NCBI GenBank assembly: GCA_964276515.1
Contig: OZ193909.1
Span: 17,484,001-17,548,000, forward strand
Direction of reading: 5' to 3'
Source: Gordius albopunctatus
Taxonomy: Eukaryota
Length of the DNA: 64,000 nt
A program made the position numbers and the translations under genes. Position 1 is the first letter of the stretch, and every line of letters starts with the position of its first letter. The notes beneath the pieces were generated by a model, which saw only the letters and a program-made list of their open reading frames with translations, made no database searches and had not been told where the DNA came from. Below are positions 1 to 58,778 of this stretch, piece after piece.

Positions 1-58
1 TAAATTTAAAAGGCTACCTTTTGGCTTAAGCATTTCAGCTGCTATTTTTCAGCGTGCT

Positions 59-2035
59 ATGGCGTCGATTTTTAGTAATTTAGACGGTATAATATTTTAT
101 TTGGACGATATATTAATAACGGGACGAACGAGAGATGAGCATGATTTGCGTCTTGTTCAGGTCTTGAATTTAATTAGTCTAAAAGATTTAAAAGTTTCAG
201 CTAAAAAATGTGTTTTTGGGACTGAACAAATTAGCTATTTAGGACATATTTTAAATAATGGTAATATTCAACCAAAGTATGACAAGATAGAAGCCATTAA
301 AAATGTTAAGTTGCCTACTAATAAAAAGGAACTATCGTCATTTATGGGTTTAATGAATTATTATAGTAAATTTATAAATAATTACACTGAATATGCTGGA
401 CCATTATACGAACTGACAAAAAAAGACGTCATATTTAAATGGAGTAAAAGTGATATTGAAAAATTTGATTTTTTGAAAAATATCTTGCTTAAAAAACCCA
501 TTTTAAGATGTTTTGATCCTAACAAACAACATATATTAAGGGTCGATGCGTCTAATATTGGTATTGGAGGCGCATTATGTCAGGTCGAGGATGGTATGGA
601 GCATCCAATTTTGTATTTTTCGCGTAAATTAAATAAAACAGAGGTCGGATATTCGGTTATAGAACGCGAGGCATTAGCGATGATTTACGGTTTACAGCGA
701 TGTCGCGAATATTTAATTGGCAAATCGTTTACTGTGATCACCGATCATAAGCCGCTTGTTGCTTTATTTAAAAAGGCGAACGCCGAACTATTAATGTCTC
801 CTAGATTACAACGTTGGCTTGTAATGTTGGGTAATTTTACATTAACCCTAAAATACGGCAAGGGAGAGGATAATCATTTGGCTGATGTACTATCGCGTTT
901 GGGCGCAGATAACATTGAGGCCGAAGATTTACCTTTGTCTTGTGATATTATAGGAGGACATGTAATCAATTCTTTGAATATTTTAGATTTAAATGATATT
1001 GTTAATGAAAGTAACAGGGACCCTGAAATATGTAAAGTAAAGAATATTTTGGCGGGCTTAGACGATAAAATTAATGTACCTATTCCTTTTAAACATATTT
1101 TGAACGAATTATATTTAGAAGATAATGTTCTTAAAAAGCATGAAAGGTTAGTGGTACCGATTAAGCTTCGTCAGGAAGTGCTAAAAATAGTACATCAGGG
1201 ACACTGTGGAATGGTTAAAATGAAAAGCTTGGCTAGACAATATGTCTGGTGGCCGCAGTTAACTAAAGATATCCAAAAATTCGTTAGGCAGTGTGAGCTT
1301 TGTAAGCTTGATGCACCGATGCCGCGTAGAAATAAAAAATCTAAGTGGCCTCGTCCTAAATTTCCATGGGAGCGTATACACATAGATTTTTTTGAATTAG
1401 ATAAAAAACGGTACATATTAATAGTAGATGCATTTTCCGGTTGGACGGAATTTAGAATTATATCAAATATATCTAGTAGAGTAACAATTACAATTTTGAG
1501 GGAATTGATAGGAAATTATGGGTTTCCAGAAATAATTGTTACGGATAATGGTAAAGCTTTTGTTAGCAACGAGTTTAAACAATTTTGTTTAAAATATAAA
1601 ATTAATCATATTTTAACTCCACCGTACCATCCAAGCTCTAATGGGCAGGTAGAAAGGTATGTAGGTATTGTTAAAAAATGGTTAAAAATAGCTAAAGTAA
1701 CGAAGGACGGAACGTGGTTATCTAAACTTTATCACAATATGTCACCACGGTATCCTAATCGTGCTCCGGTTAGCTATGAGTTTTTGAATCGTAAATTAAG
1801 GTACCCACCCGATTTGTTAAAGTTCACTGAACACCAAACATCGCCCAGTATTAGTGTGCCAAAGTTTAAGGTAAACCAAAGAGTTTGGTATCGAAACTAT
1901 TTGGGGAAACCTAAATGGGTGTTAGGTGTAATTATTGAACAATTAGGGACAAAAGTTTATAAAGTTAAGGACTCAAATGAAAATAAATTTGAAATTAGGC
2001 ACGCGGAACAATTAAAATTGTTTGATGCTATATGA
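59..2035 (+). CDS. pol: Gypsy Pol, 5'-truncated by the window edge (RT C-terminal part, RNase H, integrase)
   Basis: YLDD; RNase H DAS..GIGG and TDHKPL; integrase HQGH..CELC, IHIDFF / VTDNG / GQVER. Confidence 0.95.
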   Translation: MASIFSNLDGIIFYLDDILITGRTRDEHDLRLVQVLNLISLKDLKVSAKKCVFGTEQISYLGHILNNGNIQPKYDKIEAIKNVKLPTNKKELSSFMGLMNYYSKFINNYTEYAGPLYELTKKDVIFKWSKSDIEKFDFLKNILLKKPILRCFDPNKQHILRVDASNIGIGGALCQVEDGMEHPILYFSRKLNKTEVGYSVIEREALAMIYGLQRCREYLIGKSFTVITDHKPLVALFKKANAELLMSPRLQRWLVMLGNFTLTLKYGKGEDNHLADVLSRLGADNIEAEDLPLSCDIIGGHVINSLNILDLNDIVNESNRDPEICKVKNILAGLDDKINVPIPFKHILNELYLEDNVLKKHERLVVPIKLRQEVLKIVHQGHCGMVKMKSLARQYVWWPQLTKDIQKFVRQCELCKLDAPMPRRNKKSKWPRPKFPWERIHIDFFELDKKRYILIVDAFSGWTEFRIISNISSRVTITILRELIGNYGFPEIIVTDNGKAFVSNEFKQFCLKYKINHILTPPYHPSSNGQVERYVGIVKKWLKIAKVTKDGTWLSKLYHNMSPRYPNRAPVSYEFLNRKLRYPPDLLKFTEHQTSPSISVPKFKVNQRVWYRNYLGKPKWVLGVIIEQLGTKVYKVKDSNENKFEIRHAEQLKLFDAI

Positions 2036-2062
2036 TTATGTTCAACGTTTATTGTTATTCAG

Positions 2063-2530
2063 ATGAGAATTAATGCTGCCTGGTGCGACGTGGATTTAGA
2101 GGTGACATCCACGGCATCGAGGAACGAAAGAGTTCCAGTGTATATACTAATAAAAGTGGAGACGAACGAAAGTGCAAGATTGTTGAACTTGACGCACTCT
2201 CCGGGTCCGCCGAGACAGGTTGGGAGATCGTACGCACAAGGCTCAAGAGCCCCAAGACAACCAAGACAGGAAGAGGCTGCGGTCAGAAGTAGAGATACGA
2301 ACGAAGAGCAGCGACGAAACGTGTCTGGGAATCAACCGTTGCTGCGGCCTCCGATCTTGAAAAGAAAGAAGTGTTGGGGGTGTAAAAGCAAGCACTTGCC
2401 CCCAATGTGCTTCAAAGCAAAAACTGGTTCGGGGAAGAAAACTCAACTCAAAGATGTAGCAGAGCTGGAGTCCAGGGTGACTATGGACACCCTGACCTTG
2501 GACAGCCCCGGTCCTTCAACTTCCCAATAA
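2063..2530 (+). CDS. ORF3 of the retroelement (155 aa, basic, CX2CX3HX4C motif), copy 1
   Basis: Open ORF between the pol stop and the PPT; ATG immediately preceded by TTATTGTTATTCAG acceptor; KRKKCWGCKSKHLPPMC. Confidence 0.7.
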   Translation: MRINAAWCDVDLEVTSTASRNERVPVYILIKVETNESARLLNLTHSPGPPRQVGRSYAQGSRAPRQPRQEEAAVRSRDTNEEQRRNVSGNQPLLRPPILKRKKCWGCKSKHLPPMCFKAKTGSGKKTQLKDVAELESRVTMDTLTLDSPGPSTSQ

Positions 2531-2537
2531 TGGAAGG

Positions 2538-3509
2538 TGTGGTATACGTGTATACCACGATACCAGATGTTATAGTATACAGCGTTTTATTTAATGTCCG
2601 CGGTATAAGCGTGTTATTTAATGTTCGCGGTATACTTTGATCTTAATTAAAATTATTTTATTAATGTTAATGTAAAAGGGTTAACGAACGGTTCCGCAAT
2701 CCTTGTAATTAAAAAAAAGGAATTGGTCAAAAGAAGACACTTTTACCGCAGGTTAACCCAGACGCGGAAGTGGCTAATTCTCTTTGACGCTCTCTTTTTT
2801 TAATTACTTTTACTTTTTATTTTTAACTCAGCCACATCTGTTACTAATCTTTGCAGCCCCGTCTGAAGATTTGCTAATTCAATCAAGCCGACCACCCTGG
2901 GGAGATCCAACAGCTATAAAAGCGAAAATCTCACTTCACTAAAAAAGTCCTCGTAAATTTTTCCCCAGTCCTTCGAAGTTTTCCCCTAACTTTGTATTGT
3001 CCCCAAAAACCTTATAATTGTTTCCAATCCCTACGCCTTCGCTCTTTTACTATAATATTATTGAATTGTGTANNNNNNNNNNNNNNNNNNNNNNNNNNNN
3101 NNNNNNNNNNNNNNNNNNNNNNNNNNNNNNNNNNNNNNNNNNNNNNNNNNNNNNNNNNNNNNNNNNNNNNNNNNNNNNNNNNNNNNNNNNNNNNNNNNNN
3201 NNNNNNNNNNNNNNNNNNNNNNNNNNNNNNNNNNNNNNNNNNNNNNNNNNNNNNNNNNNNNNNNNNNNNNNNTCACTTCACTAAAAAAGTCCTCGTAAAT
3301 TTTTCCCCAGTCCTTCGAAGTTTTCCCCTAACTTTGTATTGTCCCCAAAAACCTTATAATTGTTTCCAATCCCTACGCCTTCGCTCTTTTACTATAATAT
3401 TATTGAATTGTGTAATTTAATCTTCGCGAATATTAATCTGTCTTTATCGTTGTAAATAAATTTGCATCTTTCTTTTATACTTAATTTTCTTTCGCCTTAG
3501 ACCGCCGTC
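2538..3509 (+). repeat. 3' LTR of plus-strand copy (contains the N gap and a 142-bp duplicated overlap; lacks the terminal CA)
   Basis: Starts TGTGGTATACG after purine tract AATAATGGAAGG (2526-2537); matches 8586-9217 reverse complement; TATAAAA at 2915, AATAAA at 3455. Confidence 0.9.
3073..3272. other. Assembly gap (200 N); flanks 2931-3072 and 3273-3414 are the same 142 bp
   Basis: Direct reading of both flanks. Confidence 0.98.
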
Positions 3510-3827
3510 TGCAAAGATTAGTAACAGATGTGGCTGAGTTAAAAATAAAAAGTAAAAGTAATTAAAAAAAGAGAGCGTCAAAGAGAATTAGCCACTTCCG
3601 CGTCTGGGTTAACCTGCGGTAAAAGTGTCTTCTTTTGACCAATTCCTTTTTTTTAATTACAAGGATTGCGGAACCGTTCGTTAACCCTTTTACATTAACA
3701 TTAATAAAATAATTTTAATTAAGATCAAAGTATACCGCGAACATTAAATAACACGCTTATACCGCGGACATTAAATAAAACGCTGTATACTATAACATCT
3801 GGTATCGTGGTATACACGTATACCACA
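3509..3827 (-). repeat. Truncated 3' LTR (first ~319 bp only)
   Basis: Matches 8899-9217 apart from a substitution at 3611 versus 9001. Confidence 0.92.
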
Positions 3828-3834
3828 CCTTCCA

Positions 3835-4302
3835 TTATTGGGAAGTTGAAGGACCGGGGCTGTCCAAGGTCAGGGTGTCCATAGTCACCCTGGACTCCAG
3901 CTCTGCTACATCTTTGAGTTGAGTTTTCTTCCCCGAACCAGTTTTTGCTTTGAAGCACATTGGGGGCAAGTGCTTGCTTTTACACCCCCAACACTTCTTT
4001 CTTTTCAAGATCGGAGGCCGCAGCAACGGTTGATTCCCAGACACGTTTCGTCGCTGCTCTTCGTTCGTATCTCTACTTCTGACCGCAGCCTCTTCCTGTC
4101 TTGGTTGTCTTGGGGCTCTTGAGCCTTGTGCGTACGATCTCCCAACCTGTCTCGGCGGACCCGGAGAGTGCGTCAAGTTCAACAATCTTGCACTTTCGTT
4201 CGTCTCCACTTTTATTAGTATATACACTGGAACTCTTTCGTTCCTCGATGCCGTGGATGTCACCTCTAAATCCACGTCGCACCAGGCAGCATTAATTCTC
4301 AT
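3835..4302 (-). CDS. ORF3 of the retroelement (155 aa), copy 2
   Basis: Identical translation to 2063-2530; acceptor AG at 4304-4303 abuts the ATG. Confidence 0.7.
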   Translation of the reverse strand: MRINAAWCDVDLEVTSTASRNERVPVYILIKVETNESARLLNLTHSPGPPRQVGRSYAQGSRAPRQPRQEEAAVRSRDTNEEQRRNVSGNQPLLRPPILKRKKCWGCKSKHLPPMCFKAKTGSGKKTQLKDVAELESRVTMDTLTLDSPGPSTSQ

Positions 4303-4329
4303 CTGAATAACAATAAACGTTGAACATAA

Positions 4330-7300
4330 TCATATAGCATCAAACAATTTTAATTGTTCCGCGTGCCTAATTTCAAATTTATTTTCATTTGAGTCCTTAA
4401 CTTTATAAACTTTTGTCCCTAATTGTTCAATAATTACACCTAACACCCATTTAGGTTTCCCCAAATAGTTTCGATACCAAACTCTTTGGTTTACCTTAAA
4501 CTTTGGCACACTAATACTGGGCGATGTTTGGTGTTCAGTGAACTTTAACAAATCGGGTGGGTACCTTAATTTACGATTCAAAAACTCATAGCTAACCGGA
4601 GCACGATTAGGATACCGTGGTGACATATTGTGATAAAGTTTAGATAACCACGTTCCGTCCTTCGTTACTTTAGCTATTTTTAACCATTTTTTAACAATAC
4701 CTACATACCTTTCTACCTGCCCATTAGAGCTTGGATGGTACGGTGGAGTTAAAATATGATTAATTTTATATTTTAAACAAAATTGTTTAAACTCGTTGCT
4801 AACAAAAGCTTTACCATTATCCGTAACAATTATTTCTGGAAACCCATAATTTCCTATCAATTCCCTCAAAATTGTAATTGTTACTCTACTAGATATATTT
4901 GATATAATTCTAAATTCCGTCCAACCGGAAAATGCATCTACTATTAATATGTACCGTTTTTTATCTAATTCAAAAAAATCTATGTGTATACGCTCCCATG
5001 GAAATTTAGGACGAGGCCACTTAGATTTTTTATTTCTACGCGGCATCGGTGCATCAAGCTTACAAAGCTCACACTGCCTAACGAATTTTTGGATATCTTT
5101 AGTTAACTGCGGCCACCAGACATATTGTCTAGCCAAGCTTTTCATTTTAACCATTCCACAGTGTCCCTGATGTACTATTTTTAGCACTTCCTGACGAAGC
5201 TTAATCGGTACCACTAACCTTTCATGCTTTTTAAGAACATTATCTTCTAAATATAATTCGTTCAAAATATGTTTAAAAGGAATAGGTACATTAATTTTAT
5301 CGTCTAAGCCCGCCAAAATATTCTTTACTTTACATATTTCAGGGTCCCTGTTACTTTCATTAACAATATCATTTAAATCTAAAATATTCAAAGAATTGAT
5401 TACATGTCCTCCTATAATATCACAAGACAAAGGTAAATCTTCGGCCTCAATGTTATCTGCGCCCAAACGCGATAGTACATCAGCCAAATGATTATCCTCT
5501 CCCTTGCCGTATTTTAGGGTTAATGTAAAATTACCCAACATTACAAGCCAACGTTGTAATCTAGGAGACATTAATAGTTCGGCGTTCGCCTTTTTAAATA
5601 AAGCAACAAGCGGCTTATGATCGGTGATCACAGTAAACGATTTGCCAATTAAATATTCGCGACATCGCTGTAAACCGTAAATCATCGCTAATGCCTCGCG
5701 TTCTATAACCGAATATCCGACCTCTGTTTTATTTAATTTACGCGAAAAATACAAAATTGGATGCTCCATACCATCCTCGACCTGACATAATGCGCCTCCA
5801 ATACCAATATTAGACGCATCGACCCTTAATATATGTTGTTTGTTAGGATCAAAACATCTTAAAATGGGTTTTTTAAGCAAGATATTTTTCAAAAAATCAA
5901 ATTTTTCAATATCACTTTTACTCCATTTAAATATGACGTCTTTTTTTGTCAGTTCGTATAATGGTCCAGCATATTCAGTGTAATTATTTATAAATTTACT
6001 ATAATAATTCATTAAACCCATAAATGACGATAGTTCCTTTTTATTAGTAGGCAACTTAACATTTTTAATGGCTTCTATCTTGTCATACTTTGGTTGAATA
6101 TTACCATTATTTAAAATATGTCCTAAATAGCTAATTTGTTCAGTCCCAAAAACACATTTTTTAGCTGAAACTTTTAAATCTTTTAGACTAATTAAATTCA
6201 AGACCTGAACAAGACGCAAATCATGCTCATCTCTCGTTCGTCCCGTTATTAATATATCGTCCAAATAAAATATTATACCGTCTAAATTACTAAAAATCGA
6301 CGCCATAGCACGCTGAAAAATAGCAGCTGAAATGCTTAAGCCAAAAGGTAGCCTTTTAAATTTAAAAAGTCCGGCCTCGGTATTAATTGTTAGGAGCCGC
6401 GATGACTTTTCATCTACCTGTAACTGCAAATAAGCATTGGCAAGGTCAATTTTTGAGAAAAATTTAGCGCCTATTAATTTAGCAAAAATAATTTCTAACC
6501 TAGGTAAGGGGTATTTTACCTCAATAATACATTTGTTTACCGTGATTCTATAATCAGCACAAACCCTAATTGTACCGTCAGTCTTCCTGACAGGTACTAA
6601 AGGTGTGGCCCATTCCGAATAGCCAATAGGTTCAATTACATTATCCTTTAACCATGTTTTAATTACCTCGTCGACCTTATTTTTTAAAATAAAAGGTACG
6701 CGTCTGGCAGAACAAAATTTAGGAATGGCATTTAAATCAACTCTAACCGAAAATATTTCGTCATTTAAACATCCTAAACCAGGTTCAAAAATTTTAGAGA
6801 ATTGGTTTTTTATATTATCAATCTTGGTGTGCCATGTTGTGACCAAATCAGACTTTGCCTCCAAATTAGCTAATTTATGGCATGTGGGTACCAAAGGTAC
6901 CCCGCACTTTAAATCGGCCTGAAAAATGGGTTGTTCTTGGCAGACGGGACCTCCCGAGTTATCTGATTTATGAGCTATGCGCTCTAACTCAGAATGAAAA
7001 ACGGGTGTGAAATCCCTGCACTGTGAACTACCTGACAACGCCTTCGACATCACCATGGACTTAACATCAACTTTCAAAATTTTGCGAGCATTACTTTTAT
7101 TACATAATCCCCACCATTGAATTTTGGGCCCAATTATCCTAATCCAGGACCAGCCCATTATGTTATCTACGTTCTCTTTAATAATAAATAAATCCAATTC
7201 GACTACAAATTCTGCCACTTTAACCAAAACATTAATTTTACCTAAAACAGTTATTAAAGTATTATCAAGTTGCTTAGCAATTATATTAGCAGTTTCAAAA

Positions 7301-7458
7301 TTTCGATCCGGCCAAAATTTTTTAAATGTTTTAAAACTAATAATGGATATTGCGGCGCCAGTATCTAATATAAATGTTAGCTTAAAATTATCGACATTTA
7401 CTATCACTAAAGGTGAAGCTGACGAATTTAAAACTTTATTTATATCTACCTTGCGCAT
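4330..7458 (-). CDS. pol: Gypsy Pol polyprotein (aspartic protease, RT, RNase H, integrase), intact, 1042 aa from first Met
   Basis: LDTGAAIS protease; WATPLVPV, IDLANAY, LPFGL, YLDD RT motifs; RNase H; HHCC and DDE integrase. Confidence 0.97.
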   Translation of the reverse strand: MRKVDINKVLNSSASPLVIVNVDNFKLTFILDTGAAISIISFKTFKKFWPDRNFETANIIAKQLDNTLITVLGKINVLVKVAEFVVELDLFIIKENVDNIMGWSWIRIIGPKIQWWGLCNKSNARKILKVDVKSMVMSKALSGSSQCRDFTPVFHSELERIAHKSDNSGGPVCQEQPIFQADLKCGVPLVPTCHKLANLEAKSDLVTTWHTKIDNIKNQFSKIFEPGLGCLNDEIFSVRVDLNAIPKFCSARRVPFILKNKVDEVIKTWLKDNVIEPIGYSEWATPLVPVRKTDGTIRVCADYRITVNKCIIEVKYPLPRLEIIFAKLIGAKFFSKIDLANAYLQLQVDEKSSRLLTINTEAGLFKFKRLPFGLSISAAIFQRAMASIFSNLDGIIFYLDDILITGRTRDEHDLRLVQVLNLISLKDLKVSAKKCVFGTEQISYLGHILNNGNIQPKYDKIEAIKNVKLPTNKKELSSFMGLMNYYSKFINNYTEYAGPLYELTKKDVIFKWSKSDIEKFDFLKNILLKKPILRCFDPNKQHILRVDASNIGIGGALCQVEDGMEHPILYFSRKLNKTEVGYSVIEREALAMIYGLQRCREYLIGKSFTVITDHKPLVALFKKANAELLMSPRLQRWLVMLGNFTLTLKYGKGEDNHLADVLSRLGADNIEAEDLPLSCDIIGGHVINSLNILDLNDIVNESNRDPEICKVKNILAGLDDKINVPIPFKHILNELYLEDNVLKKHERLVVPIKLRQEVLKIVHQGHCGMVKMKSLARQYVWWPQLTKDIQKFVRQCELCKLDAPMPRRNKKSKWPRPKFPWERIHIDFFELDKKRYILIVDAFSGWTEFRIISNISSRVTITILRELIGNYGFPEIIVTDNGKAFVSNEFKQFCLKYKINHILTPPYHPSSNGQVERYVGIVKKWLKIAKVTKDGTWLSKLYHNMSPRYPNRAPVSYEFLNRKLRYPPDLLKFTEHQTSPSISVPKFKVNQRVWYRNYLGKPKWVLGVIIEQLGTKVYKVKDSNENKFEIRHAEQLKLFDAI

Positions 7459-7488
7459 ATCAATGTAATTTGAATTATCTTGCGCTAG

Positions 7489-7992
7489 TCAATCAAACAC
7501 AGTTTGCCCATTAGCAACTGTTTGCGCGTGATTGACGTGTCCTCTACACTTATAACAAAATTTACCGTCCCCAACCTCTTTTGTGTTGTCGTAATTATTC
7601 GAAGTGGTGGGTGCGTTAAAACTTGGAACGTTTTTCTGGTTAAATCTATAGTCAGTGTAGGGTCTATGGGGTTGCGCATAATTATTAAAATTTTCTCTCG
7701 GACCCCGTTGTGCAAAATTTTCCGAAATATATCTGCAATTTCCCGTATTCCCCCTTTTAAAATATTTATTGTCACAATCCCTTTTGAGATGTCCCCGTTG
7801 CCCACATCCATAACATCTTATATTAGATTTAAAATTAGCCTTAAGTACAAAAACTTTTTCTATTTTCTTTAATTTATATAAGACAAATAAAACTAATATG
7901 CTTAAAATTGATATATATACAAGTAATTTATCTGCGCACAAATAATTAAAAAAATTGATACCAATTGACGGCGGCGTGTAAAAACCAAACAT
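7489..7992 (-). CDS. gag: Gag-position ORF (167 aa): hydrophobic segment plus CCHC zinc knuckle; in frame with pol
   Basis: LLVYISILSILVLFVLY followed by KLKK; CYGCGQRGHLKRDC (CX2CX4HX4C); ends TGA CTA G, then 10 open codons to the pol ATG. Confidence 0.75.
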   Translation of the reverse strand: MFGFYTPPSIGINFFNYLCADKLLVYISILSILVLFVLYKLKKIEKVFVLKANFKSNIRCYGCGQRGHLKRDCDNKYFKRGNTGNCRYISENFAQRGPRENFNNYAQPHRPYTDYRFNQKNVPSFNAPTTSNNYDNTKEVGDGKFCYKCRGHVNHAQTVANGQTVFD

Positions 7993-8567
7993 TATAAATT
8001 ACCAAATGCAATCAGAACTATATTTAAATTAATTAAACTAAATAATTTAAATAGAAATCAAATTCAATCAAACAGCAATTTAAATTAAATAAACTAAATA
8101 ATTTAAATAGAAAATCAAATTTAATTAAATAAAGCAATTTAATTAAAACCAAGCTTAATTAAGTAATCTAAACAAAAGTTTTCGTTTAATCAAAAATTAA
8201 TTAAGTAAATCAAACAAGAGTTTTCAAATAAATTAATTATCATAATGTATACAGTAACCATTTTATTAAACATAGACGTATATAATAATTATTTAATATA
8301 AGTATCACGATTAAAAGTAAAATTATCAAACATAAAAACCCTTTATCCATTATTATGCATAAATAGAAATATTCACCTCCTAATAACTTCAATATAATAT
8401 TTTACAACCGAACATTATATGATCAAATCTATTCCAATATTTTACAACAGAAATATTCGATCAGACCTTATATTCAATTATAATTATTTAAACCAACATT
8501 CAAATAAAAATCTTTTACTAAAAAAATTATTTTTACTTACGATTCCTTTTTTTTAAGAAGAGGGCGA

Positions 8568-8578
8568 TTCTGACACCA
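8568..8578 (-). promoter_or_regulatory. Primer-binding site, likely tRNA-Leu
   Basis: TGGTGTCAGAA 7 nt inside the 5' LTR end; resembles the complement of the tRNA-Leu 3' end. Confidence 0.75.
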
Positions 8579-8585
8579 AATTTAA

Positions 8586-9217
8586 TGGACGGCGGTCTAA
8601 GGCGAAAAAAAATTAAGTATAAAAGAAAGATGCAAATTTATTTACAACGATAAAGACAGATTAATATTCGCGAAGATTAAATTACACAATTCAATAATAT
8701 TATAGTAAAAGAGCGAAGGCGTAGGGATTGGAAACAATTATAAGGTTTTTGGGGACAATACAAAGTTAGGGGAAAACTTCGAAGGACTGGGGAAAAATTT
8801 ACGAGGACTTTTTTAGTGAAGTGAGATTTTCGCTTTTATAGCTGTTGGATCTCCCCAGGGTGGTCGGCTTGATTGAATTAGCAAATCTTCAGACGGGGCT
8901 GCAAAGATTAGTAACAGATGTGGCTGAGTTAAAAATAAAAAGTAAAAGTAATTAAAAAAAGAGAGCGTCAAAGAGAATTAGCCACTTCCGCGTCTGGGTT
9001 TACCTGCGGTAAAAGTGTCTTCTTTTGACCAATTCCTTTTTTTTAATTACAAGGATTGCGGAACCGTTCGTTAACCCTTTTACATTAACATTAATAAAAT
9101 AATTTTAATTAAGATCAAAGTATACCGCGAACATTAAATAACACGCTTATACCGCGGACATTAAATAAAACGCTGTATACTATAACATCTGGTATCGTGG
9201 TATACACGTATACCACA
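8586..9217 (-). repeat. 5' LTR, 632 bp, TG...CA
   Basis: Begins TGTGG (9217), ends GTCCA (8586); TATAAAA at 8840-8834; AATAAA at 8642-8637. Confidence 0.92.
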
Positions 9218-13091: not shown

Positions 13092-14387
13092 TTATTTGCG
13101 CGATTTAGATAAAAATTCATTGATTATATCTTGAGTGTCTGGAATTAAATCTCTATGAATATTCAACAAGGTCAAACCTATAAGCCTATATAAAATTAAG
13201 AGTTTGTAATAAAATGTATTTACCTCTCTTGCCCAGTTCTATTCCTCAAGTAAGTTTTAAGTCTTCTCAGCGTAGAAAAACTTCTTTCATTAGAACACGT
13301 TGTTACTGGGAGTGTTGCTAAAATCTGGTATAACACTCTTATATTTGGATATAGAAGCAGCTTGGAATTATAATCCCACAATGCTTTTAGTGCATAAAAA
13401 GGCAGGACTTCAGGGTTACAATCTTTAAAAGATTGATACCAGAGTTTAATCTCAGCCTCATAAATTTCTTGATTTCCATTCAAATCATCCCCATAAAAAT
13501 TGGCTAAATTCAAAAAGTTCGCCAGTTTAACTTCAGATAGCTTTACAGGTGGTTGTAGTAGTAAAGAATGAAATCCCATGAGAATTTGTTTATTCTCAAG
13601 AAACCTTGTGTCCATTTCTACCAAAAAAGTGTCTAAGAATGCATTATACAGAGTTATTCTATAATAAGCCTCCGGGGTTTGTTGGGCATTTCCTCTGGGA
13701 ATCGAAATCTCAAAGTCATATTGTTTTCCCATCAATGTGACATCTTTAAAAATCCTGGAAAACTCTACCTGAGAATTATTTCTAATTAATTTAATAGCTT
13801 CCACAACGTTTTCGGCCGCATTTATTGCCTGTGATAAGTCCAGGTTAACGCTTTGCAAATGAATACTAAGATTTAAAGTATAAGCAAAAATTTGCTTTAG
13901 TGTGTGTAATGATAACCAAAAATGGCCAGTTTTAAGTGCTGATACCAATAGCATGGCACCCGAAGAGGAATCATTGTCTGCCCATTCACTAATCTGCTCA
14001 AGGGTTGTGATGATTGAATCTCTTAATTCAAAAAAGCGGTTTATTGCTTGATGCTTTTGAACCCATCTTGTTTCACAGAGAGTTTTTAATTTCAAATTTT
14101 TGGAATCTGAAGACTTTACAATTGAATCAAACTTTATTCAAATTGATAGAGGAATTCATATGAAATGCATACGTTTTATAACCACAAGGAAAATTTAGGA
14201 AAAATATATTAACGCCTAAAAATACTTAATGGTTGTTGAAAATAAGAGCTCTCCATAGTTAATTAAATAGCACTCATTTTATAATATTTACTATATAATG
14301 CTATATTAGAAAATAAAAAATATTTTTTCGAAATCCGCGGGGGGGGGGGTTTGAACCCTAAAACCCCCCCCCTTGCGTACGCCACTG
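13092..14387 (-). pseudogene. Internally deleted hAT transposon (ZMYM1/PRKRIR-like transposase C-terminal half)
   Basis: LCETRW and LPVTTCSNERSFSTLRRLKTYLR; a 38-nt intron (13186-13223) leads to RLIGLTLLNIHRD...SRK*; CAGTGGCGTA terminus at 14387. Confidence 0.85.
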
Positions 14388-14399
14388 AACAATAAATAG

Positions 14400-15560
14400 A
14401 TATTGGTGGCGCAATATGACCAAGGATATCAAAGAGTATATTGTGTCATGCCATGTATGCCAGACCCATATCCCAAGGATTGATAAGGCTGTTCCTGTGC
14501 TTAATAACGTGGCCGTCGTCCCAGCACCATGGAAACAAATAGGGATTGATTTGTGCACGTTGCCCATAACCGAACACGGGCATATTTGTATGTTGGTCGC
14601 CATTGATTAGTCTCACTCGGCCAAGGAGACTTCATACAATTTGTGGGAAATATTTTGCCGATGTGGGCGTCCCAAAGTAAAAACTTAGTTGATTTATTAA
14701 TTTTTTAGATTGTTATAAGTGATCAAGGCCGTGAGTTTGTGAACTCACTGTCAGAAGGCTTGTACGCCCTTACTCGCGTACATCACAGGATCACATCAGC
14801 CTACCATCCACAGGCTAATGGACTGGTGGAAAGGGCCAACCGCACCATCGTTAACTCGTTGGTAAAGGTGTTGGAAAACGAAACCAATAAATGGGACGTT
14901 GAAGAGATGTGGACACTGGGGATTTGGTCCACAGAAGTGGATATCATGTTAGCGGCGACAGTTTTTAATATAAATATATATGTTTATTGTTCTCAATTCG
15001 GCCAATGGGCCCCTTATACACCAAAATTAAACGACAAATTATGTACTAATAATATTTATTTACACCATTCTATTAATCATTTTTAATATATATTGGATTG
15101 TAACGAATAAATTTATTTCCATTTAATGATACAATCTATAAAATTAAACCAAAAATTTAGACAGGTATTTATAGATAAACAGATAAATATTAAAAAAATT
15201 AGAAATATGCACAAAATTTGGCAGAAACTTGAGAAATATTCACAAATTTAGACACAAATTTATAGATAAACAGAGAAATAATAAAAATAAACAATTTAGA
15301 CACATAGAAATATCAATAGACAGATATTTATAGATAAACAGGTAAATATTAAAAAAAAATAGACAGAAACTTGAGAAATATTCACAAATTTAGACAAAAA
15401 TTTATTTAAAAATCAAAAAATTTAGACAGAAATGATAAATATTAAAAAAAAAATAGACAGAAATTCTATATGCAACTGAATTATATGGATGTCATGTAAA
15501 CGTAATTGACGTATGTCAAAATTGCAAAGTGTATCTGTCAATAGAACGATTTCCTTAGTG
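14400..15560 (+). pseudogene. Ginger-like DNA transposon relic: gypsy-type integrase fused to an OTU-like tail
   Basis: WWRNM..CHVC, IGIDL, 32-nt intron 14677-14708, ISDQGREF, AYHPQANGLVER, then WSTEVDIMLAATVFNINIYVY..IYLHH..NHF; minisatellite 15150-15470. Confidence 0.65.
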
Positions 15561-15579
15561 CACAAACACAATCTTACAC

Positions 15580-16170
15580 CGGCCACGAACCCGAATTGCT
15601 ACGCCGATATTTCCACCTCGTTTTTCAGCCTTGTTACTAATATCCTTTCCATAAGCTTAAAGGAGTGGCAAGTTAGCTTGATACCTCTGTAATTGCCGCA
15701 TTCCTGAGGGTCTCCTTTGCCTTTAAATAAGAGTATAACCGTGCTTGCTCTCCATTTATTAGGGATTCTCTCTTCTACCAATATCTTGTTAAGGAATTTC
15801 GTCATGGTGGTGACTCCTTCTTCACGACATCCGAGCAATGCTTCCATAGGTATTCCATCTGGGCCATTTGCTTTTCCTTTTTGCATCTTGTTAATTTGTA
15901 TCCTAACTTCATCTTCCTGCAAGAGTTCGACCATACTTATATTTGGCACAATTTCGGGAAGGGAATCCTTGTCATTTGCAATCTTAAAATATTCTTTCCA
16001 CCTTTCCATCACTTCTTTCGGCTTGAATAAGGTTTGACCCTTCTCGCTTTTGACTATTTTAAGAACTCCGACATCGCGACTTTTCTTCTCCCTTATCTTG
16101 GCCAATTTGTACATAAGCCTATCGCCTCCTTTATGATCCAGTTTGTTTGCCATCTCGGTGTACAATGACC
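15580..16170 (-). mobile_element. RTE-clade LINE reverse transcriptase fragment
   Basis: KANGPDGIPME, LFKGKGDPQECGNYRGIKL. Confidence 0.9.
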
Positions 16171-16339
16171 GCGGCCAGGAAAATTCGAGAATGTGTTCAA
16201 ATATTTTTTAAGTTTGTTTATGCAAGCAATACGGCTCCCTCCTTTATTAGTTACAGTGACATAATTACTTTTTAAAAAGCGCGACCAAGCATCTCACCCC
16301 TCACAGTCAAAGTAAGTAGAATCTCTTAATTATTTCCGA

Positions 16340-24839: not shown

Positions 24840-25435
24840 TTTAGCTTAAATTTAAATAGACAGCTGAGTCTATAGGTAACCTTAATGTTACAATGCAATC
24901 AACCACTTTATATTCAAATTCAAGCATAGACATAAGTCTATGTATTCAAATATCCAACATCTTTTATATTCGTCTGTTTAAGTATATTAGGACATGTATA
25001 ACATTGCCTTTTTTAAAAAAATATTAAAGGTTTATTACTACTATTGGTTGAGGACATACACTTGGTAATAGAGCACTAATTAAAATTTATTTCAATAAAA
25101 TTCGAGCCACTAGTGGACGTTATAAAGGATAGTTATAGACTAATAAAACCATAGACTTCCGAACAACTGATATTCTCAGCAAGCATAAAAAGCGCTATAT
25201 TGACGGAAATTGTAACCGAACAATACAACTCAACATAAGTTATATTAGAAATTAGTAAATAAATTGCAGGTTAATGATATAATTTAGAAGATAATAACAA
25301 CCCCTTTCAGGAGTGCCTGCAATTAAATTAAAAGAATACTCTAATTAGCGCCATCTATAGGCAATTTTAATTAGAGACTAATTTGAACTATGTATATCCC
25401 TATCTTTTTTAGTATGTGACTCGAAAATGATAACA

Positions 25436-25478
25436 GACATATAACGTTTTCGCTCTTATTAGAGCTCATCAGTATGCC
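25436..25478 (-). ncRNA. Minimal type I hammerhead ribozyme
   Basis: GGCAUA-CUGAUGA-GCUCU(AAUA)AGAGC-GAAA-ACG-UUA-UAUGUC: conserved core, stem II, palindromic AACGUU stem III, stem I GGCAUA/UAUGUC. Confidence 0.85.
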
Positions 25479-25641
25479 ATAGTTAATTCTCTAGTCACAC
25501 ACTAAGCGAGATAGGTATCAAAATAATTATTACTACCATAATTATGGGGGTTATTTCATAGCCAACAGAAGAATGAATTAAATCTAATTTGTGGATTATA
25601 TATACCTATCTCGCTTAGTGTGTGACTAGAGAATTAACTAT

Positions 25642-25684
25642 GGCATACTGATGAGCTCTAATAAGAGCGAAAAGGTTATATGTC
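25642..25684 (+). ncRNA. Minimal type I hammerhead ribozyme (stem III variant AAGGUU)
   Basis: GGCATA CTGATGA GCTCT AATA AGAGC GAAA AGG TTA TATGTC. Confidence 0.75.
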
Positions 25685-26118
25685 TGTTATAATTTTCGAG
25701 TCACATACTAAAAAAGATAGGATATACATAGTTCAAATTAGTCTCTAATTAAAATTGCCTATAGATGGCGCTAATTAGAGTATTCTTTTAATTTAATTGC
25801 GGGCACTCCTGAAAGGGGTTGTTACCAAATCCATTATTTTCCTAATTAACAAACCAATTTCCTTCTATAAATGCACATTATGTGGACGTCCATGATATTT
25901 TATCTTTTTTTGACAAACTCTTTTTCAAGAGGCAGTTAAAGGGAGTTGGCAATGAGATTTCACAATATCACTTTAGAATAACAAAACAAAATAATAAATT
26001 TATTTCGTAATTATAAATATAATAAAAACAATATGTTCATTTCTTGAAAAAATAAAATAAGGTTATAAAAAAAGTTGTCATAATCTTCATCTTTTTATAA
26101 AGTAGTTGTAATAATGCT

Positions 26119-32849: not shown

Positions 32850-33478
32850 TAGTGTTGTTAAATTGCTAACTTTAGCAATGCTAACTATGTGCTATGCTCG
32901 AGCACAAACAGTAGCTGGGTAATATGCTAGTTTAGCACAAAGAGTGCTAACTGTTCGGTGCAATAGTTTTAACAGTAGCACGTAAAAATGCTCGAGAGGT
33001 TAGTCGAAGCAGCCAAATCTGTTAAAAAATTTAGCAGGAGCTCGAGCAGGTAGTAGATTGAATTGCTTTTGTCAAACTTTTTTAGTTACTTACAATAATA
33101 TTTGCTCATATTATATATCATAAATAAATTAAGAACTTTGCCCCCCCCCCATCTCCCCTCTGGTGAGAAAGAGGATAAAAAATGGAGGGGGGATAAGTTC
33201 TTAATTTATTTATGATATATAATATGAGCAAATATTGTAAGTTATTAAATTTTGACAAATAGCAATTCAATCTACTATCTGCTCGAATTTACTGCTCGAG
33301 CTCCTGCTAAATGTTTTAACAGATTTGGCTGCTTCGACTAACCTCTCGAGCATTTTTACGTGCTACTGTTAAAACTATTTCACCGAACAGTTAGCACTCT
33401 TTGTGCTAAACTAGCATATTACCCAGCTACTGTTCGTGCTCACGTTTTTAGTTGAAGCTGCTTAGCAATTTAACAACT
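32850..33478. mobile_element. Fold-back MITE (nearly whole-length palindrome); fragment also at ~62505-62650
   Basis: GTTGTTAAATTGCTAA / TTAGCAATTTAACAAC ends; internal arms ~32895-33135 and ~33197-33440. Confidence 0.85.
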
Positions 33479-33479
33479 A

Positions 33480-33935
33480 TAGCCCCAAAGACGCCCAAGA
33501 GCTTAGTAAGTGCAATCTAAGGTTGAGCCTCTTCTCACGCCAAATGGCGCATAAGACCACGATCGAGGTCGCACAGATGTTAAAAAGAAGAGAAGTACAC
33601 ATCGCCTGCCTACAAGAGACGAGGTGGAACGGAACGAAAGCTCGGGAATTAGGAGAAGGATACAAGCTTTTCTACAGTGGGTCACCAAATCGTAGAAACG
33701 GGGTCGGTATCGTTCTAAGCGAATCGTTCAAGGACAAGGGGGTGGAAGTAAAGCGTTGTTCCGACAGGCTAATTTGGGTGAATATTGCAGATCAAGGGGG
33801 CCTCCTAACCGTTATGTGCGTGTATAACCCCTAAATTGGATATCTGGAATCAGAGAAAGACATATTCTTTGTTTCATTGGAAAAGGAAATACAAGGAATA
33901 GGACAGGAAGAAAGGCTAATTATTGGGGCAGGTGA
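33480..33935 (+). mobile_element. RTE LINE AP-endonuclease fragment
   Basis: IACLQETRW, GYKLFYSG, RNGVGIVL, LIIGAGD. Confidence 0.85.
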
Positions 33936-40689: not shown

Positions 40690-41070
40690 ATGCGAAGGTA
40701 TAAACTAAATAATAATATCAAAGTATTTATAACAAAATTTGAGCTATTCCTAAGGACCGAGCTTAAACCCGGGACGAACGAGAGAAAAGCTGCGATGCTA
40801 TTAGGCAACCTCGAGGGGTAGGTATTCCAATTATTGTTATAAGTCTTTAGACCGCGAGATCTTACAGGAATTTTATACGAAGAAGCTAAGAAACAGCCAA
40901 GGAAATTATTCGATAGGAATTCATGTGTGATGGCAATGAGATATAAATTCTCAAAGGTTCGACAAGAGGTGGGGGAGACGATATACGTATACGCGAAAAA
41001 ACTCAATGCCACAACTCACAGATGCAATTTAGGAAACAAAAAATTGCAAAACAGATTATTTTATTAATTT
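40690..41070 (+). pseudogene. gag: Decayed conventional Gypsy/Mag gag capsid region
   Basis: KAAMLLGNLEG*..LYEEAKK..VMAMRYKFSKVRQEVGETIYVYAKKL..RCNLG with in-frame stops; possible PBS TGGCGA at 40496. Confidence 0.65.
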
Positions 41071-41419: not shown

Positions 41420-42440
41420 TAGTTAGTTTTAAGGTATTCAAATATCTAAAATTCGATTTCTATTGTGTTTATAAATTGTATAATAAGGGGTGAGAATAGA
41501 GCGGTACCATACATTCGAATTGTGTAATAAAGGATATGAATAAAGCGTTACCATATATTCAGACTGTTTAATTAATAAGGGATATGAATAAAGTGCTACC
41601 ATATAATTCCGCTCCCTATTTGCAAGTAGTGCTAAAAGTTAAAGTATTCGGCTAATTTAATTGGCCAGTGAACTTTTCAATAGACTTGCTGGTTGTATGG
41701 CTTGACTTAGTGCTGTTTCAGGTGGTTGCAGGTGTAAAGGTGGAAGGCTGAGATGTAATGGTTGGGCATTTTGTGAGTGGTTTTTGTAATTTAACTGATT
41801 CGACATAGACTAGCTTTAAACGGTCAATCGATATTTTATCTTTTTTCCCGTTTCTGTCTATCACAAAATATTTAGCTTGTATCTCAATTACTTTGAAAGG
41901 ACTTTCGGTTTCTATGTGGTTTTGGGTATTGTGTTTTGTTGTTGGCGTATATATTGTGTTTTGAAAACTCTGGGGAATTTTTTTTAATAACGAACTAAAT
42001 TCTTGAGGATGTGTAGAGAAATAGGTTTCTACTTTAATATAACCCAAATTATTCGAGTGAATGCTTTTAAATAAAACGTCGTTTTTATATACACATCTGG
42101 CGAGGTTATTTGTGTGAATAATAATGGTGAATAATGTGGTATTTAAATTATAAGGAGTAATCAAATAATAAGGTTAAGATATATGAATAGTGAGGTTTGT
42201 GAGTGCTCGAATAGTAAAGGTTAAGTATTTTCCTAGGTAACCGATGATTGAGTTGCTTTATTCGAATTACCTAGATAACCATAGATGTACAAAAGTCAGT
42301 TGTTAATTTAACTCGTTAAATGTATTTTGTTTATGTAAAAATGATGAGGTTTGTGTTTCTATTTGTTATCTCTTCTTAACATCTACTGTTAATTTAAAGT
42401 TACTTAAAAAATCTGCACCATATATTGGAAGTTTTACAGA
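41420..42440 (-). mobile_element. Internally deleted Gypsy fragment (protease end, integrase tail, LTR-like tandem repeats at 41480-41610)
   Basis: LPIYGADFL; SPFKVI..ISIDRLK. Confidence 0.6.
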
Positions 42441-43046: not shown

Positions 43047-46000
43047 ATGATCAATGACTCAGAAGGTAGCAGGCTATCTTCAATGTTCAAACGTGTTTCA
43101 ACCTTAATTGAACCTAGGGGAGGGAGTCAAGTAATTTTTTACAAACTCTATCTATTATATTTATAGGATGAGCTTAAAAAATTTTGGATGCCAGACAGTA
43201 ATTGCAAAGAATGCTATGAATGTGGAGGCCACTTTACAACATTTAGACGTCGACATCATTGCAGAATTTGTGGACAAATCTTTTGCAGTAAATGTTGTCA
43301 CCAAGAAATTCCAGGAAAAAAATTTGGGTTTGAAATTTCTAACTATAATCTATTATTTTTTGTTTGAAATATCTAAAAATTTTGTAGTTTAACAGGATCC
43401 TTGAGAGCATGCCATTATTGTTGCTCTTACCTAACCAAACATACAAATTTGACGTCAAAAAAATTACCTTCTCTTAATCAATTGAATAAATTGGAAAAAA
43501 GTAAGAGCATAAGCTATGATGACTTTACTTATGAGCACAATGCCAAACTATCTATTAATGGCATGCCATTAATTAATCCTGCGCAAAAAGATTCTGTCAA
43601 TGCAGAAGCAAATTTATATTATAGTGAGACTGATACAAAGTCTCTCTCAAATGATTTCAGTCTTAATGAAGCTGATTATTATACGGATAAATCCCTGGAT
43701 TTATTCTATGACCAAGATGCAACAGATATAACATGTAATTTATATAGAATTAACATACAAATACATTTTTTATCATTTTTTTTATTATTAAACTAACATT
43801 TTTGGATGATAAGTTTGAATTACACATTTTAATTTTGTAGCTCGAGAAGTTAATGTGCCCAATTACTCTTCTCTCCCTAATTCTTATAACCTGGAAGCCC
43901 TAGGTTTGGGAGCCTATTTATCGAGTGTGTACGAAAAAATGCAGCACCCCCTGCTCGGTATCAAGCTAGCAAACAATCGATTACATTTCAAAAATTATCC
44001 CAATACCATCACAGGTATACAATATTATTATTCGTATTTCTGAATAAATATAAATAAAATTAAAGAGAAAAATAAATTTATAAAGAACTGCCATTATTAA
44101 AGGTGCCCAGGTTATAGAATGGATCCTACGCCTGCCTAGCATAGCAAATCGTGAAGCCGCTTCATCCTTAGCTCAAGCGCTGTTGGATTTTGATTACATT
44201 ACATCGGTCACCAATGGTAAAACTAACAAAGAGGCCAAGCCTGCTTTCCGCGATAATGACATTTACAAAGCAGGGTTGGCATCTGTTACAGGCATAAATA
44301 AGCTTAGCCTACCTGACCCCACTAGCGGTATACACAATGATGAGCTAAGTTTTAACATTATATAATATCCTTTTTGTATAGAATGCGAATATACGAAAGT
44401 TTTGAATATGACCTTAGCTGGCGCCTCTTCGGTATCTTACACAACTCGGTCTCAAAGTCCGGAAGTTGGCCTAAAGGTTTTTGTCACATTTATATATGTT
44501 TAATAAAGCAAGCTGTTATTATATAACATCCACATTCCCTTTACTAGAACGGCTGAATGGTTTTAAGTTTATAAAAACCATTGTATGGAGATAAAAGAAT
44601 TTGCTTATTAGATCAACGTTATAACTATAAACTCTTATATTCATTTCGGCTTATTATTTATAGTACATATAAATTTTTAGTTGAACTGAAATTTAAAGTT
44701 GAAACTGAACTAATTTCTTTTTTAGGTAAGGAACGATTAATTCAAACTAATACTTTTTTTGAGGAACCTTAACAACACCATTAAAGTTTATGTACAAAGG
44801 AAAGATAAAAAATGCTAAGTCTTCTTAAAATTCTATATCATTAATAGGAATTACAGAGGTCCTTAAATATTGACTTTGTGATTTCACCCCGTAATATGAA
44901 AGATAACTGATAGATGATTATATGCTAAATAATATGTTTTTTGTTTTTTACCAAGTCGTCCATCTTTTGAGATAAATGAAGTTAAAGGTGCAAAATGGGC
45001 ATTTAAACCTTTTTTAAGGCTGTATTTCCACCCCTGTTTTTTAATATTTATTTTAGATTTTCTCCCCTCTCTCTCCTACGCTTCCACTATCGCCCCTATA
45101 TCTAGCCAAGCACACAAAAAGGGTGCGGTTTTGGAAGTAGAAGGAGAAAGTGAAGTATGTAGCGCGCCCTAGGGTGTGCTGAGGGGGTATTGTAATCTTC
45201 AGAAAAAGAGCCACACCCACACTGTTAGTCTCCTTCTCTGGTTGAATACCGACCATTAACTGGTCTATGATTTTTTCATAGAGACCCGATGGACCATTAG
45301 ATATATGCTAAGGGGGTGTTATTAGCTAGTTGTTATTGTCATCATCATTAACACGATATGTGTTGATTTGTTAATCTAAGCTATCCTATCTATAAAGTAT
45401 AAGTAAACTAATATTAAATCAAAGACTTTGCTAATTACCGGACAGGACATTCAACTTTTACTTTTATGGGCGTACGCAGGATTGTATAATTTTTTTTTTT
45501 GGGGGGGGGGGTAAGGGGAAGGGAGGGTTACAATATCAAATAAACTGTATCTAAGCTTGGTGTTTTTGTTATGCCCCTCCAAAAATATAATGTTCTTAAG
45601 CCCTTGTAATTTTTACACAAATTATAAATTATTTTCATCTTTCGACTAATTTTTATCTGTGTAAAAGCACAACAAACATTTTATTTCAAAAAAATCATTT
45701 TCATCTAAAAAAATAGTTCCAAAAATATTTAACCATGAAAATTTTATAACCGCCTCCTTCAAAAAATCCTTCTTATGTTTCTAGATTTTTATAAGTGTCT
45801 TAAAGTCTTTGATGTAACTAAACTATAATATTTTAACCCATTTAATTTAGTTATTAATCAAAAAACCTTTCAGGAATTTCCCGTCCCTCCCCCTCATTTA
45901 CGCCACTGATTTATCCACATTGTTGCTATTTTATGTTTAAAAAAAGTAAATAGTACTAATTACCTCTTCCCCCTCATGCCTTATTTGTTTCATCAATGTG

Positions 46001-57605: not shown

Positions 57606-58778
57606 TTTGCAGCTCTCCCCCCCCCCCCCTTTACACCACCTGAAAATTAAAATGAACTAATAAATTTAACGGCTAAATGAACCTTAAAAATATTCTGTCA
57701 AAATTAAAAGTATCAAAATTTTATTTAATAAATTTTAGATGAAATTAGAGATGTGAGATGCACTGAACAACTTAGCGTTAATCCAATGATACACCAAAAA
57801 AAATTTTTAGGATTTTTATCCCTTTAAAGTCTTGATGCGTTAAAAATTGTCCATAAAATTCAGGAATTTTTTATTAATATTAATTTATGAAACTTATGAA
57901 TGGTGAACTTTTATCAGTAAACTTCTTAGTGTTCCGAATCGACAAATATGGCATACAAATTAGAACTTGATAAACAAGTCGTTTACCCTACCACGCCTAA
58001 TAAATTTTGAAACAAACCGGTTTGGGTCAGAAAACATATCACGTTAACATGGCCTAAAGGAAAAGTATTAGCAAGAAATGGTTTGTTATCTGATAAGATT
58101 AGGCGTAATGATGCATTTATGCATAAGAGGGCTGATAAAATAAGGAGATGAAGTAGTTAGAAGTCAAAAATTACCAAGTCCAACTTCAGTCGCTTTAAAA
58201 CGATCCGAAAAAGTTATTGCCCATAGAAAGTGACACAGCGGTTTTTGCTTTGCATTTTTATAAAAATAGAATAAGATATATATTTGGCGACTGTTCTAAT
58301 GTGTTTGGTATAGTTAATTTTTTCCATAGAAAATATTAGAACAAACTAAGTAAATAAAAGGACGAATTTAAAATATGGCTCTAGACAATTAGCTAGCGAA
58401 TATTAGAATTCTCAAAGGTTTAGCACAAAATTTAACTATTCGCAATTAATGTTAAATTCAAAGGCCCCATCTTAATTTTTATTCGCAATTCTCCAGTTCA
58501 CATTTAAGTGGTCATATGTATAAAGCATAGCAAACTATTTTTTGCTTAAAGTAAATAATCTTCCTTAGATTCACTTTCTGATTTTTCATAATGATAAATT
58601 TTTTATAAATGATATAATTAACTAACTTTGTTATAGCGTGCCAACGCGTGATTGTAACCTTAGCATTCATTCCTTGGTAATTAAAAAGTTATCAATGTTT
58701 TGGCTGACTTTAGCCTTTGTTATATAAACTTTTAAATTATATGTAATTTATAACCCGATGGTATAAAATTAAAATTAT

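Follow-up and report, generated by a model that had tools for sequence, protein, structure and literature searches.

A candidate capsid-less design in a Ty3/gypsy-derived retroelement of Gordius albopunctatus

Both LTR (long terminal repeat) retrotransposons and retroviruses are held to need a capsid, which confines the tRNA primer, the reverse transcriptase (RT) and the strand transfers and shields the cDNA. Could something else do this job? The question is raised by an element in the genome of Gordius albopunctatus, situated in a 64,000-nt stretch of contig OZ193909.1 (assembly GCA_964276515.1, positions 17,484,001 to 17,548,000), which we call the window and whose numbering we use throughout. 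On the minus strand, the element runs from 9217 to 3509; a single copy was examined, and its features are on the minus strand unless stated otherwise. A first-pass annotation of the letters had described it as a candidate new design with a capsid-less gag, a pol reached by readthrough and a spliced third open reading frame (ORF) that is not Env. The reading we favour, with a probability of roughly 0.4, is that this is a design of the whole family, in which two nucleocapsid-like proteins, a membrane-tethered one from ORF1 and a soluble one from ORF3, replace Gag and a membrane assembly serves as the reverse-transcription compartment.

The missing capsid and the segment in its place

Read in the sense direction, the element consists of an LTR, a primer-binding site (PBS), a donor-like site, an AT-rich leader, ORF1, the heptamer TGA-CTAG, pol, an acceptor-like site, ORF3, a polypurine tract (PPT) and the second LTR. 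All features of the first-pass list are present on this strand, and its account had to be corrected in two respects, the length of the LTRs together with the foldback that cuts one of them, and the shared frame of the ORFs together with a knuckle in ORF3, which it had overlooked. The pol gene (4330..7488) encodes 1052 aa with the order protease (PR), RT, RNase H and integrase (IN), its catalytic motifs are present and it has no internal stop. This domain order, the direct LTRs with TG...CA ends and the presence of both PBS and PPT are as in Ty3/gypsy elements. ORF1, pol and ORF3 all lie in one frame, with single TGA codons between them. Comparisons were made with the relatives of pol, meaning the best 120 of 898 matches above threshold.

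No capsid could be detected in the element. A hidden Markov model (HMM) built on the capsids of 96 relatives gave a best E of 16 when run against all six frames with stops written as X, and the same model, as a positive control, recovered a decayed capsid at 40711-41064 with E=4e-13. With hhalign, the capsid match was 0.1-0.2% for ORF1, ORF3 and the three leader frames and 97.3% for the control. For this copy, the claim of a capsid-less gag is therefore borne out by both methods. A diverged capsid of a long-branch lineage could escape a profile, yet there seems to be no room for one. From Met to the first knuckle there are 59 aa in ORF1, the median for 94 relatives being 207, and the predicted transmembrane (TM) helix and basic flank of ORF1 sit where the relatives have about 200 aa of capsid. 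The two adjacent Gag knuckles typical of Mag are also missing from ORF1, in which a degenerate second Cys pair (residue 146) lies 86 aa past the first knuckle, compared with 18-21 aa in 94 relatives. As the capsid is lacking, we describe the element as descended from and working like Ty3/gypsy and not as a canonical member. The fragment behind the control lies on the plus strand (40708-41067); it is a decayed capsid of Mag type with an internal stop, and no knuckle or pol adjoins it.

ORF1 (7489..7992) encodes 167 aa comprising the predicted TM helix, the basic flank, a CCHC knuckle and a low-complexity linker. The helix is predicted at residues 23-41 (7926-7870), a hydrophobic 19-mer with a Kyte-Doolittle (KD) value of 2.49, and none of the Gags of 96 relatives has a KD of at least 2.4. 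Five of the 12 residues after the helix are lysines. The knuckle, recognised as a sequence motif, covers residues 60-73 (7815-7774). AlphaFold2 in single-sequence mode predicts one helix at 8-50, with a predicted local distance difference test score (pLDDT) above 90 at about 21-40. We conclude that the hydrophobic segment is likely a membrane anchor. An uninterrupted frame over the first 56 codons survives in 0.7% of 5000 shuffles. Of 1500 shuffles with such a frame, 87 matched the hydrophobicity of ORF1 and 1 had the basic flank as well, by a combined criterion chosen post hoc with the sequence already seen. Low-complexity, hydrophilic stretches occupy residues 76-145 of ORF1 and 51-105 of ORF3 and leave no room for a capsid there either. 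Sequence searches of NCBIfam and PDB returned knuckle matches or noise alone, and fold searches with the weak models of ORF1 and ORF3 gave no match at E<=0.001. The idea that the beginning of ORF1 arose by an ancient duplication of the end of the LTR with the PBS was rejected (P=0.26).

Lineage and predicted expression of the three reading frames

The closest match of pol, and also match 43 among the best 120 of 898, come from Gordionus sp., a horsehair worm. These proteins, P0001 (CAK9296000.1, 45% identity) and P0043 (CAK9291465.1, 42%), are automatic gene models. The remaining relatives show 34-39% identity, and the named ones are mostly K02A2.6-like. A FastTree phylogeny of the 89 out of 121 sequences that matched the RT-RNase H cut-out pattern grouped the RT-RNase H of the element with both Gordionus proteins on a long branch with support of 100, and an IQ-TREE analysis of 26 of those sequences recovered the same clade with 100/100. 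The RT phylogeny that the first-pass annotation had called for gives the element two relatives in a clade of its own. By itself, this grouping would suggest a nematomorph host. Both trees were computed without an outgroup and without a named Mag element, on K02A2.6-like relatives, which we take to be of the Mag lineage. Going by the single ORF and adjacent knuckles of the relatives, and by general knowledge of the group, pol is probably of the Mag type of Ty3/gypsy. The available text of PMC5408684 describes Mag elements as having adjacent knuckles and no gag-pol frameshift.

Two traits of pol are shared with one or the other Gordionus protein. The spacer between PR and RT is 221 aa long in the element and 215 aa in P0043, against a median of 136 (n=104). 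The pol frame ends without a C-terminal tail, at the same point as P0001, while a tail no shorter than 39 aa (median 80) is present in 94 of the 118 other relatives and the other 24 lacked the motif used. Because P0001 shares this end point, the stop of pol is a feature of the lineage and not a lesion of this copy. A fused Gag is absent in both Gordionus proteins; of the 112 others with a protease motif, 96 have at least 230 aa upstream. The Gordionus genome preprint (10.1101/2023.06.26.546503), in its accessible text, reports repeat totals and no element structures. Scans of metagenome contigs yielded three distant loci (27-35% identity), none of which had a Mag-type capsid match, and scans of viral and prokaryote contigs yielded no relatives.

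ORF1 and pol meet at an in-frame TGA-CTAG (7485..7491), a predicted readthrough site. The accessible part of PMC5100048 describes UGA-CUAG as a readthrough motif. CTAG begins at one of the 1219 in-frame positions of ORF1 and pol, and this one is the position after the stop, so a chance nonsense change is very unlikely; TGA itself arises from 27% of single-step nonsense changes. The weight of the TGA-CTAG lies in its position, as the heptamer as such is not rare in the window (5 found, 3.7 expected). From this context, readthrough of the ORF1 stop into pol, as first proposed, is likely. TGA as a general sense codon was rejected, there being no TGA within ORFs of 1052 and 1524 codons.

The expression of ORF3 is predicted to depend on splicing. 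Just behind the PBS there is a predicted splice donor GTAAGT (8535..8540), the sole GTAAGT on the sense strand of 9217-3509, and the probability of one falling within 100 nt after the PBS by chance is 0.037. The predicted acceptor, a pyrimidine tract with CAG (4303..4319), abuts the ORF3 ATG at 4302, and no such site precedes any of 66 ATGs inside pol. Upstream of the donor, the 282 nt that begin at the presumed start site contain no ATG at all (P=0.05), so that splicing at 8540 would make the ATG of ORF3 the first one. We therefore predict that ORF3 is translated from a spliced mRNA joining donor 8540 to acceptor 4303. The leader between donor and ORF1 (7993..8540, 548 nt) has 18% GC, 8 ATGs and a 56-nt tandem duplication; it is as AT-rich as the neighbouring host introns and is, to judge by its sequence, non-coding in character. 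A hydrophobic upstream ORF of 36 aa within it (8240..8350) was rejected as a real gene, since 21% of leader shuffles yield an ATG ORF of this length.

ORF3 (3835..4302) encodes 155 aa at 51% GC, with a basic low-complexity linker and no TM segment. Its frame survives in 0.1% of shuffles, and at the ATG the GC content jumps from 25% to 52%. Its knuckle, CX2CX3HX4C at residues 104-116 (3993-3955), turns up in 5 of 200000 shuffles. The same spacing is found in the first knuckle of 43 of the 96 relatives' Gags, and in 23 the residues FK stand close behind it, as they do in ORF3; an hhalign comparison of ORF3 with the first knuckle of the relatives gave P=0.0013 and a probability of 18%. There was no notable match of ORF3 in Pfam, NCBIfam or PDB, and its highest 19-aa hydropathy is 0.45. 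With no TM segment and no such match, ORF3 is not Env, in agreement with the first description; it does not encode a large glycoprotein that has a signal peptide and a TM anchor, as errantivirus-like Env does. The AlphaFold2 model (single-sequence) was uninformative with a pLDDT of 38. ORF3 resembles a nucleocapsid that has been moved or duplicated, with 50 aa of new N-terminal sequence. That it is a former tail of pol, severed by a nonsense mutation in this copy, was rejected, given that P0001 ends at the same point and the GC step coincides with the ATG, not with the stop. The stop of pol is in frame with ORF3, and a stem-loop is predicted within about 45 nt of it (4332-4240, no shuffle control). 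A Pol-ORF3 readthrough product is possible. As to the retrovirus-like gene regulation claimed for the family, the context for readthrough is there and splicing is predicted from motifs, and regulation of this kind is no novelty, both being described in Ty3/gypsy elements.

The termini agree with a recently mobile element. The 5′ LTR (8586..9217) measures 632 nt with TG...CA ends, twice the roughly 320 nt given at first. Of the 3′ LTR only the first 319 nt are in place (3827-3509), because the sequence folds back at 3509. With the remainder of the 3′ LTR taken from the inverted arm of the foldback, the two LTRs differ at 2 of 630 positions, and for this reason the insertion is apparently recent; together with the intact pol, this accords with the recent activity proposed earlier. 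A target-site duplication is not readable, as the foldback replaces the 3′ flank. The 5′ LTR has a TATA-like box at 8840-8834, and a start site near 8820 is our guess. The LTR start forms a perfect 9-bp hairpin (9216-9197), and a 27-nt tandem repeat follows at 9120-9180. A PBS-like 11-mer beginning with TGG (8568..8578) lies 7 nt past the LTR end, and it may be of the tRNA-Leu type; no tRNA gene was found in the window. In the accessible text of PMC3286476, the PBS types of Mag are tRNA-Leu or tRNA-Ser. The PPT (3828..3839), with purines at 10 of 12 positions, overlaps the stop codon of ORF3.

On the plus strand, positions 1..3508 hold an inverted duplicate of the 3′ half of the element, with part of pol, ORF3, a near-complete 3′ LTR and a 200-N gap. 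Window positions 1-2856 are the exact reverse complement of 3509-6364, with 0 mismatches in 2856 nt, and the arm carries the same difference specific to the 3′ LTR. A second insertion was rejected on these two grounds. The arm is likely an assembly or amplification foldback (chimera or mis-scaffold) of the same copy and thus gives no independent support. The spacer of the inverted duplication is 652 nt, and the sequences flanking the gap overlap by 142 nt. The stretch from LTR through PBS, leader and ORF1 to pol is gap-free.

A possible capsid-free assembly and its rivals

If the design is real, it might work as follows. ORF1 would be made in excess, and ORF1-Pol would arise through occasional readthrough of TGA-CTAG. 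Given its single helix and the basic flank C-terminal to it, ORF1 would hold the knuckle and Pol at a membrane, on the cytosolic side. Joining the donor at 8540 to the acceptor at 4303 would produce a short mRNA with the ORF3 ATG first, and ORF3, a second basic knuckle protein, would coat RNA. More speculatively, the resulting membrane-tethered RNA-protein assembly could concentrate protease, tRNA primer and RT, which is the capsid's job, and such capsid-free membrane assembly could be the standing design of the lineage, again a speculative step. A loose precedent is that oligomerisation combined with membrane binding sorts proteins into exosomes, as stated in the accessible text of PMC1885833. 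Whether this would amount to an autonomous lineage without a capsid, reverse-transcribing on or inside host membranes and with a layout that resembles an RNA virus whose structural gene is subgenomic more than it does a retrotransposon, we regard as doubtful.

Several observations weigh against a capsid-free design. It is read from one copy alone, the inverted duplicate not being independent, and we know of no LTR element that has been shown to replicate without a capsid. The 8 upstream ATGs would hamper translation of ORF1 from unspliced RNA. The first 56 codons of ORF1 have a leader-like 23% GC, and GC rises from 15% to 38% inside ORF1 (7840-7820), beside an acceptor-like AAG/G at 7841. Hydrophobicity by itself is weak evidence: of 75 open stretches of AT-rich sequence in the window, 4 are equally hydrophobic, and the 36-aa ORF of the leader is more hydrophobic than the ORF1 segment. 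A codon model at first seemed to favour ORF1 and ORF3, and an open-frame control removed the signal, leaving z=1.3 for residues 1-56 of ORF1, 0.4 for residues 57-167 and 0.3 for ORF3. Word searches, which required exact 5-mers and covered near lengths only, found no homologue of ORF1 or ORF3. The Atlas matches are weak, at 0.83 for ORF1, and for ORF3, at 0.91 to unnamed arthropod clusters, recognition is below the threshold of the tool. The starts of the Gordionus proteins prove little, because they come from automatic gene models. Finally, gag-less elements that likely borrow a capsid are described in the accessible text of PMC3977881.

Borrowing could indeed account for the same layout. The family would then have lost its capsid and would take the shell from a helper family of Mag type, as proposed for Tos17 of rice, with the element itself supplying Pol and RNA-binding proteins. 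All LTR elements known to us use a capsid, and the decayed Mag-type capsid at 40.7 kb indicates that capsid-bearing relatives were once in this host. According to the part of PMC3977881 available, Tos17 is active with pol kept and gag absent. Tos17 has, however, lost all of its gag including the knuckle, and a knuckle ORF, a readthrough context that would leave ORF1 in surplus, a predicted anchor and an extra knuckle gene are more than a mere passenger would obviously require. We rate a borrowed shell as unlikely here. Much the same can be said of a deletion derivative, in which the parent has a capsid before the knuckle, behind either the leader or the hydrophobic N-terminus, that was lost in this particular insertion. 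One copy is known, the GC step near 7840-7820 is junction-like, and selecting oddities may enrich for rare deletions. Against this, a random fusion to the leader rarely yields 56 open codons from an ATG (the 0.7% of shuffles given above), 56 open codons upstream are available at no position of the leader, and the open stretch also ends in a helix that a basic flank follows. Remodelling is seen in the knuckle region as well, the second Cys pair being 86 aa away where the relatives have 18-21 aa; a parent combining TM helix and capsid would be an oddity too, as 0 of 96 relatives do so; and the readthrough and ORF3 hold regardless. We judge this account, too, to be improbable on balance without setting it aside.

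The hydrophobic start of ORF1 might alternatively be intron or leader DNA, with the true upstream exon elsewhere, or the product of an assembly chimera. The AAG/G site at 7841 resembles, by eye, the intron end of a host kinase gene near 59.4 kb, and the locus already contains a foldback and a scaffold gap. The evidence from the element itself points the other way: about 280 nt before the 8540 donor are without an ATG, the frame that would join 7840 has a stop three codons ahead of the donor, no capsid-like exon occurs in any frame of LTR or leader, and the stretch from LTR to pol is free of gaps. We find this explanation very unlikely. Should the capsid-free design prove true, a mobile lineage with a membrane anchor would allow the replacement of a capsid by a membrane compartment to be tested.

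Surroundings of the locus and comparison with known systems

The rest of the window contains host genes and remnants of other transposons. A PIKfyve/Fab1-like gene (43135-51287, plus strand) with FYVE, TCP-1-like and PIP5K domains includes a single open frame of 1524 codons, and an inositol polyphosphate kinase gene (58773-60901, plus strand) has short AT-rich introns of about 17-27% GC, with borders set by eye. An open frame of 151 codons at 41718-42173 (minus strand) resembles, by eye, the end of a gypsy-type integrase; its Pfam result was a sub-threshold DUF6843 only. Transposon remnants are a hAT dimerisation domain at 13220-14137 (minus), an integrase core fragment at 14709-15086 (plus), an RT-like frame recognised by eye at 15599-16207 (minus) and an endonuclease-like fragment at 33466-33834 (plus). 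Long nested inverted repeats, 98-99% complementary, form hairpins like those of miniature inverted-repeat transposable elements at 25295-25824 and 32900-33441.

Among known systems, the K02A2.6-like relatives (e.g. P0002 and P0011), presumably of the Mag lineage, are like the element in pol (34-39% identity in the best alignment), in domain order and in the spacing of the ORF3 knuckle. The element differs from them in having no capsid region, a predicted TM helix, non-adjacent knuckles and an in-frame stop before pol, and further in a PR-RT spacer that is 80 aa longer, the lack of an integrase tail and the extra ORF3. The Gordionus proteins, with which the comparison runs through pol alone, form a clade with the element (100/100), P0043 sharing the PR-RT spacer and P0001 the end of pol. 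Tj1, Tcry1 and Tosmo1-3 of fission yeasts, which are Ty3/gypsy as well, likewise have gag separated from pol by a TGA in frame, with CT next; these elements are fungal, and the accessible text of 10.1101/2022.12.06.519325 reports neither capsid loss nor a third ORF for them.

The predicted anchor of ORF1 is reminiscent of sORF2 of MDG1 elements (10.1101/2025.03.14.642691), which likewise has a short N-terminus, one TM helix and a basic patch and lies upstream of pol. That protein is a separate one of 63-107 aa, often myristoylated, beside a normal capsid Gag. By prediction, ORF1 has the TM helix and basic patch of sORF2 and proteins like the fusion-associated small transmembrane (FAST) fusogens; it differs from both in that its helix belongs to one protein with a knuckle and, through readthrough, with Pol, and that there is neither MGxxxS/T nor a Gly at position 2. 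For ORF3, the nearest parallel is in LTR elements of bdelloid rotifers, whose third ORFs are family-specific, not Env, placed after pol and typically expressed from spliced messages. In the available text of PMC5408684, they encode esterases, exonucleases or proteins with a coiled coil or TM segment, in addition to a gag ORF, whereas that of the element is a basic knuckle protein. Tos17 is, like the element, a mobile LTR element with pol present and its own capsid absent, and it differs, as far as the accessible part of PMC3977881 goes, in being of Copia type, in missing the whole gag including the knuckle and in having neither readthrough nor ORF3. In our element the knuckle ORF is kept in frame with pol, and gag is therefore not absent as a whole.

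In the open-access literature (main texts; Repbase and GyDB entries and supplements were outside the search) we found neither this combination with a missing capsid nor any element of Mag type in which UGA readthrough goes together with a hydrophobic start of Gag and a further knuckle gene after the integrase. Each regulatory part of the element has its precedent, with readthrough described elsewhere, spliced non-Env ORF3s in the rotifers and small ORFs with a TM helix and basic patch in MDG1.

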